This document shows, piece after piece, positions 3,001 through 6,000 of a stretch of DNA of 10,423 nucleotides. The stretch comes from a virus (Duplodnaviria; Heunggongvirae; Uroviricota; Caudoviricetes). How positions within the stretch are numbered: position 1 is the stretch's first letter; the number at the start of each line of letters is the position of its first letter. Made by a program: the position numbers. Where the stretch lies: IMG/VR virus record IMGVR_UViG_2534681835_000018; one strand, 5' to 3'.

Positions 3001-6000
3001 CACCGTACACCTGATGATTTTCATCGTATACGCGCTGTATCTCTCTCTTCAGCCAGTCATCGCGCTGAGCACGGGCACTGCGTTTATCAGGATGATGTCG
3101 CTGTTGCTGACAGTGGTAATACGTTGACGGGGCAATATGCAGTTCACTGCATACCGGTCCGACCCCGTACTGCTCACGCAGCTTATCCAGCAGCGGCATT
3201 ATTTTTTCCAGAGGCGGTCGAACTCCGCCTTCGCAAAATAAGCGGAAGCCTGGCGAAGGATATCGTTACTGCGGCGCAGTTCACGATTTTCACGTTCCAG
3301 CTCTTTCAGACGCTGACGTTCAGCGCTGGTGAGCCCACCATCACCGCCCCCGGTATCCCGCTCATGCTGGCGAACCCAGACACGCAGAGTCTCCGGCGTA
3401 CAGCCAATCTTTGGGGCAATGGAACAAATTGCCGCCCACTGTGAGTCATATTCATCCTGACTTTCCAGAACCATACGAATCGCCCGCTGACGGACTTCGG
3501 GGGAAAAACGAGTATTTTTAGTCATCCTGTTTACCTCTTTCTCAGGGAGTTTAGTCTCCAGGATTTCCGGGGCGGTTCAAAAAGATGAAAAAGAAAGATC
3601 GCGATGCTGATTTGCGCTGGATTCATGGCGTTATAGTTCAGGCAGCGTGGTTTGTAAAAGCATCACTGGAGCAGAATGCACTATCGGGCAACTATCCGGT
3701 AACTCCGGATAGTTGGATAAGCTGTAGTGAGCGAATGCCGGATACCAAAACAGCCGTTCTTGTTGCCAGGGATTTTGGCAGGAAAGGTGACTGGCGAATG
3801 AAATGGGCGACTTACATCCCGGGGCATCCTGACGCTAATGATGGGTGGATAATACCTGGTGCGTCGTGGATACCATCACACTGGATGCCTCTACCAGAAC
3901 CGCCGCAGGAGGTGCGCCAATGAACTGGCCTGAAGCATTTGCAATTACAGGCGTTGCTATGGCTATCGCTTTTTTAGTATATGTTATTTGTCGGTGAGGG
4001 TAAAAACGTTCGCCGGGATTAACACCAAAGGAGGGAATATGTCGGATGATATATCACTGGCAATGGAAGGTGCGCTGGCTGTTGTTGCTGTTGTGGGCGT
4101 TTACTGCCTGGTTGTGTTTTTGATGGATCGACTAGGGAACTGAATTCATTACGATATGGGAATTCCCATATCGGGTAAAAACGGTTTGCGGTAAAGCGAG
4201 AGTTAAGTAGAATTGCTGCGGGTGCTTGAGGCTGTCTGCCTCGGGCATGCCACCGTAAGGCAGACAGAGAAAAGCCCCAGTTAACATTACGCGTCCTGCA
4301 AGACGCTTAACATTAATCTGAGGCCCAATCTATGCTTCACAAACGTAGGTTAGCCTCTTACGTGCCGAAAGGCAAGGAGAAGCAGGCTATGAAGCAGCAA
4401 AAGGCGATGTTAATCGCCCTGATCGTCATCTGTTTAACCGTCATAGTGACGGCACTGGTAACGAGGAAAGACCTCTGCGAGGTACGAGTCCGAACCGGCC
4501 AGACGGAGGTCGCTGTCTTCACAGCTTACGAACCTGAGGAGTAAGAGACCCGGCGGGGGAGAAATCCCTCGCCACCTCTGATGAATCAGGCATCCTCAAC
4601 GCACCCGCACTTAACCCGCTTCGGCGGGTTTTGTTTTTCCTGGCATTCTGGTTTACAATTCGCACGCCAGCCTGAACAACTGGCACCTGCTGCGCCAGCA
4701 GAGACAACCGATGGCGCACGATACCAAATTATACAATTCTGATGATTCTGCCGTCTTTGCCAGCAGGCGCGGACGGTGTTTTCACGCATTCAAATCTGAC
4801 TGGTACCAGCATCCCCCATGCACTGAAGAACAGGCCGAATGGCTCATTCAGTGTTACCGCAGGCGCGGATGCGAGGTTAAAAAAGCCCTTAGCCTCGACT
4901 ACCGTCACTGGATAATCTCCGTCAGGCTCCCTTACTCCGAACGGCCACCGCGTCCGTCCCGCACATTCTAGCAACGGATCTGGAGGTAATGTGCGGGTAT
5001 TACTTCGACCTGTTCTGGTACCGGAACTCGGTCTGGTTATCGTTAAGCCAGGCCGTGAATCCATGCGGGTATTTCATGGCGGCAGGGTGCTGGTGGAGTC
5101 TGAACCGAAAAGCATGCGTAATCTGCCGTCCGGGGTCGTTCCTGCCGTTCGCCAGCCGCTGGCGGAAGATAAATCATTACTGCCATTTTTCAGCAATGAG
5201 CGTGTGATTCGTGCTGCTGGTGGCGCTGGTGCACTGTCTGACTGGTTATTACGTCACGTTAAATCCTGCCAGTGGCCTCATGGTGATTATCATCACAGCG
5301 AAACTGTCATACATCGTTACGGTACCGGCGCGATGGTGTTGTGCTGGCACTGCGACAACCAGCTGCGCGACCAGACATCCGAATCACTTGAGCAACTTGC
5401 TCAACAAAACCTGTCAGCATGGATGATTGACGTCATCCGCCACGCAATGAATGGCATACAGGAACGGGAATTATCGCTGGCTGAATTATCCTGGTGGGCA
5501 GTCTGCAATCAGGTGGTGGACGCATTACCTGAGGCAGTATCGCGTCGTTCTCTGGGATTACCGGCGGAAAAAATCCGCTCCGTATACCGTGAAAGCGACA
5601 TCATACCGGGAGAACAGACCGCCACCAGCATACTGAAGCAGCGCACAAAAAATATTGCGCCACCGCCTCACACCCACCAGCAACAGAACCCACCACAGGA
5701 AAAGACGGTGGTCAGCATTGCCGTTGATCCGGAGTCTCCGGAATCCTTCATGAAACGACCTAAACGTCGCCGCTGGGTAAATGAGAAATACACACGCTGG
5801 GTAAAGACACAGCCGTGTGCGTGTTGTGGTAAGCCAGCGGACGATCCTCATCATCTGATTGGTCATGGTCAGGGTGGAATGGGAACAAAATCCCACGATA
5901 TTTTCACGCTACCGCTGTGTCGGGAGCATCACAACGAGCTTCATGCGGATCCGCTGGCGTTCGAAGAAAAGCATGGTTCCCAGGTTGATTTAATTTTTCG

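Follow-up and report, generated by a model that had tools for sequence, protein, structure and literature searches.

Two tandem single-helix micro-protein genes upstream of hok in a lambdoid prophage: ORF1, an overlooked member of a widespread phage family, and ORF2, its annotated and translated neighbour

We consider here two small open reading frames (ORFs), called ORF1 and ORF2, that lie in tandem upstream of a hok toxin locus in a prophage. The stretch of DNA analysed, referred to below as the window, is the 10,423-nucleotide virus record IMGVR_UViG_2534681835_000018 of IMG/VR, and it represents the early/nin region of a lambdoid prophage of a Shiga-toxin (Stx)-type Escherichia coli. ORF1 (3920..3997, plus strand; ATG at 3920, TGA at 3995-3997) encodes the 25-residue peptide MNWPEAFAITGVAMAIAFLVYVICR, an allele of a 'WPEAF' micro-protein family whose members normally have 27 residues, and its Shine-Dalgarno sequence AGGAGG (3907..3912, plus strand) ends 7 nt before the ATG. 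ORF2 (4039..4143, plus strand) encodes the 34-residue, single-helix peptide MSDDISLAMEGALAVVAVVGVYCLVVFLMDRLGN, preceded by the Shine-Dalgarno sequence AAGGAGG (4028..4034, plus strand), of which the GGAGG (4030-4034) lies 4 nt before the ATG. A preliminary description of the two ORFs, made from the sequence, proves base-exact in coordinates, sizes and Shine-Dalgarno sites, and its view that each peptide is dominated by one hydrophobic helix holds as well, the best 17-residue Kyte-Doolittle means being 2.48 for ORF1 and 2.94 for ORF2 (3.22 for Hok). It had also taken both ORFs to be probably unannotated, which is right for ORF1, absent from RefSeq, and wrong for ORF2, which is WP_001278454.1 in E. 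coli O111:H8 and ECs_5710 in strain Sakai. ORF2 is in fact both annotated and known to be translated, while ORF1 belongs to a widespread, unnamed family that annotation has overlooked.

The ORF1 peptide was traced by exact look-up, by tblastn and by a DNA pattern scan, and its loci were collected along two routes. The first goes via the upstream DUF551 protein and is unbiased as to ORF1 (a contig scan seeded with this protein yielded just 6 loci), and the second uses a degenerate DNA pattern of the conserved N-terminal codons, with codon 2 left free, and is unbiased as to the upstream gene. The same frame is found in the regions of other phages at ca 75% DNA identity, and there are 52 distinct intact sequences of conserved length, with the 27-residue consensus M-x-W-P-E/D-A-F-x-x-x-G-x-A-x-A-x-A-x-x-V-Y-S-I-C-R-W-G. 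Met1, Pro4, Ala6 and Gly11 are invariant, and Ala15, Ala17 and Trp26 nearly so. The pooled pairwise ratio of non-synonymous to synonymous change (pN/pS) is 0.34 in the ORF1 frame, compared to 0.91 and 1.46 in the other two (19 distinct sequences). For codons 18-27, not covered by the search pattern, the corresponding values are 0.37 versus 0.86 and 2.48 (52 sequences), and Fisher tests of synonymous against non-synonymous changes in divergent pairs give p = 0.002-0.008. A 6-nt deletion in one locus (L008) keeps the frame. The sequence conservation does not extend past the stop codon, where the loci run into unrelated contexts, namely the hok region, xis/int or other genes. Because selection is seen in the ORF frame alone, ORF1 is, as judged from its substitution pattern, a genuine protein-coding gene that forms a widespread family without a name.

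A similar picture emerges for ORF2. Here pN/pS is 0.28 in frame versus 0.79 and 0.87 in the other frames (8 distinct DNA sequences), and the most divergent pair differs by 14 synonymous and 7 non-synonymous changes (Fisher p = 6e-6). A 9-nt duplication (P0084) again keeps the frame, and in the most divergent copy (L109) only the Shine-Dalgarno site can still be aligned in the stretch that separates ORF1 from ORF2. These comparisons indicate that ORF2, too, is a genuine protein-coding gene. The comparison of synonymous and non-synonymous changes that the preliminary description had called for thus finds codon-level conservation in both ORFs, and in their own frames only. That description had named stops or frameshifts with no codon-level conservation as the outcome that would speak against the ORFs; some lineages are indeed damaged, yet both families show in-frame selection.

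ORF1 is present in Stx phages, among them 933W, where it lies between L0139 and hokW, in the lambdoid phages BP-4795 and PhiR12, in the lytic vequintavirus Av-05, a coliphage, and on 227 SJ46-type (P1-like) phage-plasmids, mostly of 90-120 kb and non-mobilisable. It also occurs in a cryptic Escherichia clade, and a shorter form, MDWPTAFCIVGCAFAIAWLFRS, is found in Klebsiella phages. In phage lambda no ORF1 follows ea22, and the C-terminal domain of lambda Ea22 is not DUF551. None of the GenBank or RefSeq phage records examined annotates ORF1, and the same is true of the RefSeq E. coli genomes. A few submitter annotations hold the exact 27-residue protein (a 'putative prophage protein' in E. 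coli 042), and others give an over-long version of 45 or 52 residues. No family model in Pfam, PHROGs, NCBIfam or PADLOC scores above threshold for ORF1 or ORF2, the best scores being sub-threshold noise (PTR2, 18 bits with a cutoff of 27; phrog_38566, E = 0.005; KdpF, E = 0.23), and full-text literature searches with peptide strings, accessions and locus names gave no match. An apparent fusion of ORF1 to DUF551, suggested by the clustering of the 27-residue ORF1 with 121-residue Shigella DUF551 proteins, was rejected as a clustering artefact, the sequences containing no ORF1 peptide.

We now turn to the way in which ORF1 would be expressed. The preliminary description had the gene translationally coupled to the one upstream, and the ATG indeed shares an ATGA (3920-3923) with the TGA stop codon (3921-3923) of a DUF551 frame, whose last codons also hold the ORF1 Shine-Dalgarno sequence. 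This frame (3580..3923, plus strand; Pfam PF04448 DUF551, E = 5.7e-20) is a C-terminal remnant that ends in ...PEPPQEVRQ and is labelled 'incomplete; missing N-terminus' by the Prokaryotic Genome Annotation Pipeline (PGAP). The N-terminal part of the Ead/DUF551-type gene lies at 1741..2269 (plus strand), where the ORF ends in ...SKALSGE, and the two parts are separated by a 1310-bp IS3-family (IS629-like) insertion sequence (IS; 2270..3579, minus strand; according to PGAP, an IS3 family transposase with programmed frameshift). The element has terminal inverted repeats at 2270 and 3579 (left end TGAACCGCCCC..., right end ...GGGGCGGTTCA) and is flanked by AAA on both sides; an intact homologue of the split gene, in L161, reads ...SKALSGEKMKKKDRDADLRW... 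The insertion removes the normal translational partner of ORF1 in the window, and is itself outside both peptide genes.

Beyond the window, the ATGA start is found in all 120 matches to the ORF1 pattern; in Sakai (NC_002695.2) it falls on the stop of ECs_1518. The upstream frame ending in that TGA has at least 50 codons in 95 of the 120 copies, and a motif resembling a Shine-Dalgarno sequence lies within the last codons of the upstream gene in 117. The upstream tails are of at least three unrelated types, PEPPQEVxQ (DUF551), NGLISVEDILR and NDLKNIEQEVNR, all of them belonging to 'ea' genes of the Ead/Ea22/EaA type. Since the ATGA is kept behind unrelated upstream genes, ORF1 is a portable terminal cistron with a stop-start overlap. 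The universal ATGA suggests production by termination-reinitiation coupling, and ORF1 appears to be expressed as the tail of an operon, with no transcription unit of its own.

At DUF551 loci that have no ORF1, the slot is often filled by another small hydrophobic ORF with the same coupling, as in L068 (at 1452), L033 and L066 (1536 and 1440) and L054, L055 and L090 (ca 1460). These substitutes include the 28-residue MPPVKVVIITLVMIVIARIMSGEIGWIW, the 40-residue MNKCNALLYAMVIGFGLAAG... and a protein of 93 to 94 residues with an N-terminal helix. The end of the DUF551 coding sequence (PEPPQEV, containing GGAGG) serves as a general junction and ribosome-binding site for the next ORF.

Not all ORF1 copies are intact. 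In the window, codon 26 is changed from TGG to TGA and the conserved Trp26-Gly27 is lost. Among 293 complete E. coli genomes with this ORF1 subtype, 139 have exactly the truncated allele, with nothing annotated there, so that it is fixed in a lineage. Given this loss and the splitting of the upstream partner by the IS629-like element, the window copy of ORF1 is probably decaying. An amber at codon 3 (TGG to TAG, Trp3) is found in L003, L004 and L009 (POCJ13, 75/02 Stx and strain 05-3629) and in L005 (phiSTEC1589-Stx1c). It spans two ORF1 subtypes that share the upstream junction variant PPKEVRQ, and recombination, not two separate mutations, may account for this. The POCJ13-type amber copies also lack the invariant Gly11, L004 has in addition a 1-nt deletion, and O157:H7 carries an A17D allele.

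ORF2 lies in a 175-bp cassette bounded by two copies of the 11-nt direct repeat GGGTAAAAACG (3998..4008 and 4173..4183, found by repeat search). Loci that have no ORF2 (L005, L010 and L011) contain a single copy with one base different, GGGATAAAAACG, and there ORF1 is joined directly to the hok upstream region; the cassette is thus a discrete presence/absence unit between conserved neighbours. Its 3' end is a perfect 22-bp palindrome, CGATATGGGAATTCCCATATCG (4152..4173), with an EcoRI site at the centre. The corresponding hairpin (−16 kcal/mol, z = −3.6) is stable on either strand and has no U-tract. The palindrome is kept with small changes in all ORF2 cassettes, and is absent from ORF1-hok loci that have no ORF2 and from L238; candidate roles are an RNA 3' stabiliser, a weak terminator or a protein site.

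Word-indexed and exhaustive profile searches for relatives of ORF2 return only Escherichia sequences at ≥ 82% identity and one distant relative. The profile search covered 1.84 billion representatives and gave 13 matches, the protein-homologue search used a 51-residue TTG-extended frame, and the phage collection gave no match. The distant relative, P0105 (L238 1501-1593, GCA_002110175.1), is the 30-residue MLAALKGFVAILAVVAIYCLVVVLMDRLSD with a GTG start, and sits between an ORF6N-domain gene and hok/mok at a locus with neither ORF1 nor the palindrome. ORF2 is restricted to Escherichia, and would be the younger of the two genes. Descent as a duplicate of ORF1 or as a truncated Hok was considered and rejected on sequence comparison.

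Published data show that ORF2 is translated. Among the translated ORFs that Huecker et al. (2017) reported for E. coli O157:H7 Sakai is XECs145, which corresponds to ORF2 extended too far at its 5' end (PMC5597208). Its end maps to ECs_5710 in the Sakai prophage Sp6, and the protein encoded there, MSDDISLAMEGALAVIAVVGVYCLVVFLMDRLGN, differs from ORF2 in one residue (V16I) and has the same position between a DUF551 gene and hok/mok. The published figures, which are for this orthologue in uninduced Sakai rather than for the window strain, are in lysogeny broth (LB) an RNA value of 79.1 and a ribosome value of 346.1 reads per kilobase per million (RPKM), with a ribosome coverage value of 4.35 and a coverage of 0.99 (PMC5597208, Tables S2, S3, S8 and S10). 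In brain heart infusion (BHI) they are 121.3, 150.1, 1.14 and 0.84, and under BHI stress 73.3, 1.1, 0.01 and 0.37, in the same order (PMC5597208). The ribosome profiling (Ribo-seq) signal that the preliminary description had asked for thus already exists in the case of ORF2. The same study predicted an inner-membrane location and one transmembrane helix for XECs145, and called it 54 residues long from an upstream in-frame start (MCYLSVGVKTF...; PMC5597208). The 34-residue form considered here, which is the current RefSeq start, is favoured by the comparative data and the conserved Shine-Dalgarno site. A translatomics supplement for strain EDL933 gave no match.

Downstream of ORF2 lies the hok/mok/sok type I toxin-antitoxin locus (4220..4634, plus strand), with mok at 4332-4544, hok at 4389-4544 and a terminator hairpin at 4613-4630. 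The Rfam model of sok, RF01794, matches 4220-4394 with 117.5 bits, and PGAP names the protein HokD. Just before the start of this match, at 4186-4213, we note TTGCGG and TAGAAT separated by a 16-nt spacer, which is below the threshold of our consensus scan and is likely the hok mRNA promoter, albeit a putative one. At loci that have no ORF2 this putative promoter begins ca 10 nt past the ORF1 stop, so that read-through from the early operon would lead straight into hok. A sub-threshold Rfam match to isrK at 4553-4634 (27 bits, gathering score 50), ending in the terminator-like hairpin, probably reflects just the structured 3' terminus of this mRNA.

The association with hok was counted at the 104 IMG/VR ORF1 loci with enough downstream sequence, taking hok within 900 nt. 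It is present at 48 of them (46%), and ORF2 at 10, all with hok; these counts are inflated by the heavy sampling of related Stx phages. ORF1 is also found away from hok, next to xis/int, on the phage-plasmids and in the lytic Av-05, and the ORF1-ORF2 pair also occurs before an oppositely oriented gene with no hok. The adjacency that the preliminary description had noted is thus frequent and not constant, and the association is real, not obligatory. The paper on hokW-sokW does not mention the upstream small ORFs.

As to the wider setting, the segment 3560-4638 of the window is 100% identical to E. coli O111:H8 strain 8E, for which the PGAP order is Ead/DUF551-type genes, an IS3-family transposase, the DUF551 remnant, a 34-residue hypothetical protein, hokD, DUF968, RusA and the antiterminator Q. 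The region 158-619 / 597-953 of the window holds an Ea22-like coiled-coil gene, which has ...LNEQREYYEGVISDGSKRIA... and ...GIRIKGE in common with lambda Ea22, together with a zinc-ribbon/coiled-coil gene of the same type as L0139 of 933W. These genes place the 'ea' cluster upstream of the Q region and in the same orientation. Between Q and a row of three consecutive tRNA genes at 9119-9368 (a Met-type with CAT anticodon, Arg-TCG and Arg-TCT) there are genes for a CPBP-family protease (6931-7755) and for a regulator with a helix-turn-helix domain (8377-9090). Such a row of three tRNAs is typical of the region preceding the stx genes in Stx phages.

With moderate confidence, we interpret ORF1 and ORF2 as two separate accessory phage genes, each encoding a single-span inner-membrane micro-protein with a non-lethal, modulating effect on the membrane. 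ORF1 would close the phage 'ea' (Ead/Ea22/DUF551) cluster as its last cistron and would be made together with the early 'ea' genes, by ribosomes that finish the upstream gene and restart at its ATG. The charge distribution of the 27-residue peptide suggests insertion with the N-terminus out and the C-terminus in, that is, with the acidic N-terminal tail (MxWPE) on the outer side and Arg25 on the inner one. The two membrane interfaces could then be occupied by Trp3 and Trp26, which are 23 residues apart, with Pro4 capping the helix. The invariant Gly11, together with Ala15 and Ala17, could form a small-residue face that packs on another transmembrane helix, and we propose that ORF1 acts by binding such a helix, be it of a second copy of itself or of a host or phage protein. 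ORF2, in turn, would be a miniature accessory cassette, or moron, expressed in the lysogen, with its own Shine-Dalgarno sequence and 3' hairpin, situated between ORF1 and the hok promoter region; the moron-like character is suggested by the translation of the Sakai orthologue in uninduced, growing lysogens. Its product, with termini that are acidic or neutral, may act in the same general way as that of ORF1, by non-lethal modulation of a membrane process.

Several points weigh against this interpretation. The mechanism is for both peptides derived from sequence alone, and their size and hydrophobicity are fully compatible with membrane damage. The association of ORF1 and ORF2 with hok exceeds what would be expected if they were independent, and P0105 too is found directly upstream of hok. 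Regarding expression, Sakai contains several near-identical prophage copies, so the Ribo-seq reads of XECs145 may be shared among them, and the Sakai study took only ORFs of at least 30 residues, which left ORF1 (25-27 residues) out of its assessment (PMC5597208). Our consensus scan found no promoter-like site on the plus strand upstream of ORF2, and a search by eye for a sigma-70 promoter within ORF1 gave nothing convincing. The sole published prediction for XECs145 is a weak promoter 173 bp upstream, with a linear discriminant function (LDF) score of 2.13 (PMC5597208).

It is also of interest to compare the two peptides with known systems. Small inner-membrane regulators of E. coli such as AcrZ, KdpF, MgtS, MgrB and CydX have ca 20-50 residues and one transmembrane helix, are often encoded within or at the end of an operon, and use the helix to bind a larger membrane protein. 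ORF1 and ORF2 are similar to this group in size and in having a single helix, but there is no homology (the KdpF score of E = 0.23 is noise), and they are phage-borne rather than part of the chromosomal core. Phage morons, such as lambda bor and lom or HK97 gp15, are accessory cassettes that lie between conserved phage genes and are expressed in the prophage. The ORF2 cassette resembles them as a presence/absence insertion with its own ribosome-binding site, a 3' hairpin and, according to the published data on the orthologue XECs145, expression in the lysogen, but unlike typical morons it measures just 175 bp, and no promoter or canonical terminator was found in it. Peptides of the Pf3 coat type span the membrane once with the N-terminus out, are inserted by YidC, and have a short acidic N-terminal tail, a helix and a basic residue on the C-terminal side. 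Their likeness to ORF1 (E5 ... R25) is an analogy of charge pattern alone, with no sequence relationship.

The preliminary description pointed to type I toxins and small membrane regulators as having the architecture of the two peptides, and a first alternative is that one or both are type I-toxin-like, depolarise the membrane and form a toxin cluster with Hok. Like Hok/Gef (PF01848 HOK_GEF) and the toxins Ldr, Ibs, TisB, ShoB and DinQ, ORF1 and ORF2 are small, hydrophobic, single-helix prophage peptides, and they physically adjoin a true hok/sok locus. The length of 25-34 residues with one very hydrophobic helix recalls ShoB, TisB, DinQ and the Ibs type in particular, the adjacency to hok is recurrent, and the inactivating or damaging alleles (the codon-3 amber, the stop at Trp26 in 139 genomes and the A17D of O157) would be expected if the product were costly. 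Positive evidence in this direction is, however, lacking. Rfam has nothing over 3920-4180 apart from a sub-threshold echo of sok on the minus strand (18 bits, E = 0.2), so that neither ORF is matched by an Rfam RNA, and the toxin families of Pfam, NCBIfam and PADLOC do not match ORF1 or ORF2. With respect to Hok itself, Pfam gives no match to PF01848 at E ≤ 10, BLASTP gives none, and Smith-Waterman scores compared with composition shuffles have p of 0.05-0.29. The search of the opposite strand for antisense promoters, which had also been recommended, found two weak 9/12 sites on the minus strand; the total for both strands is 3, compared to 1.1 ± 1.1 in shuffles, which gives no antisense signal beyond the level of the shuffles, and a sequence scan found no minus-strand terminator for an antisense RNA over the two ORFs. 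Nor does either gene have the long folded leader by which type I toxins hide the ribosome-binding site. The Shine-Dalgarno sequence of ORF1 is in the upstream coding sequence, with operon coupling through the overlap at the ATG in 120 of 120 copies, and that of ORF2 is left almost entirely unpaired by the predicted fold, with just two weak pairs. The ribosome coverage value of 4.35 for ORF2 in exponentially growing cells would be difficult to explain for a potent toxin kept silent, and its termini are not basic. On these grounds we regard this alternative as unlikely, and neither gene would be a type I toxin or work as part of hok/sok.

Another option considered is that the ORFs act mainly in cis, the translation or the cassette hairpin buffering or tuning the transcription and translation that read through from the early operon into the hok mRNA, with the peptides being secondary. 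The geometry is suggestive, since the ORF1 stop is ca 10 nt from the inferred hok −35 where ORF2 is missing, the ORF2 cassette brings a stable hairpin close to the inferred hok promoter, on its upstream side, and the distant relative of ORF2 has the same position before hok, which itself follows 46% of the ORF1 loci. The purifying selection, however, acts on the amino-acid sequence and goes beyond keeping the frame open, the hairpin lacks a U-tract and is missing in L238, and many ORF1 copies (next to xis/int, on phage-plasmids, in Av-05), as well as the ORF1-ORF2 pair before the oppositely oriented gene, have no hok to regulate. A main function in cis is therefore quite improbable. The same low probability is given to the possibility that the peptides are membrane partners of Hok that modulate its insertion or pore formation, either braking it at the protein level or timing a phage release assisted by HokW. 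It would explain why about half of the ORF1 copies, nearly all of the ORF2 copies and the distant ORF2 relative are immediately upstream of hok. Finally, that the ORFs are chance frames or decaying remnants, functionless in every genome, is very improbable: the truncation and broken partner gene in the window, the premature amber or frameshifts of some lineages and the missing family models would fit it, and it may hold for this copy of ORF1, but at the family level it is contradicted by the frame-specific selection, the conserved length of the 52 intact ORF1 sequences, the distribution across phage types and genera and the published ribosome coverage of ORF2 (PMC5597208).

It should be mentioned that natural ORF1-ORF2 fusions of 70 to 74 residues, with two helices, are found in L113 and L114 (Logan assemblies) and in P0078, P0079, P0071 and P0077. 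They are caused by single-base changes, namely an extra G in the TGGGGGTAA run in two lineages, and frameshifts in a T-run or near codon 24 in the others, and may be real variants or assembly errors. The AlphaFold2 model of a natural 74-residue fusion has two helices (pLDDT 67, pTM 0.39) and is too weak to inform on their packing. The intact ORF1 allele ends in TGG GGG TAA, and, as a variant of the improbable Hok-partner reading, a −1 slip of tRNA-Gly on this G-run would yield the same 74-residue fusion as in the genomes with the extra G.

Returning to the reading of ORF1 and ORF2 as accessory membrane micro-proteins, the finding is an incremental addition to the catalogue of small proteins and not a new type of system. 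Although conserved over hundreds of enterobacterial phages, be they temperate, plasmid-borne or lytic, a 27-residue gene is outside RefSeq and all of the family libraries, and it was also dropped from the one relevant Ribo-seq screen by a 30-residue cutoff. Some caution is called for in that deletions and constructs around hokW or hokD may unknowingly include or exclude ORF1 and ORF2. The ORF1 family offers a testable rule of expression, the ATGA restart at the end of the 'ea' cluster, and a short conserved motif for mutagenesis. The ea/exo-xis region affects the lysis-lysogeny decision in Stx phages (PMC10834534), which makes an overlooked membrane peptide encoded there a reasonable candidate for testing.

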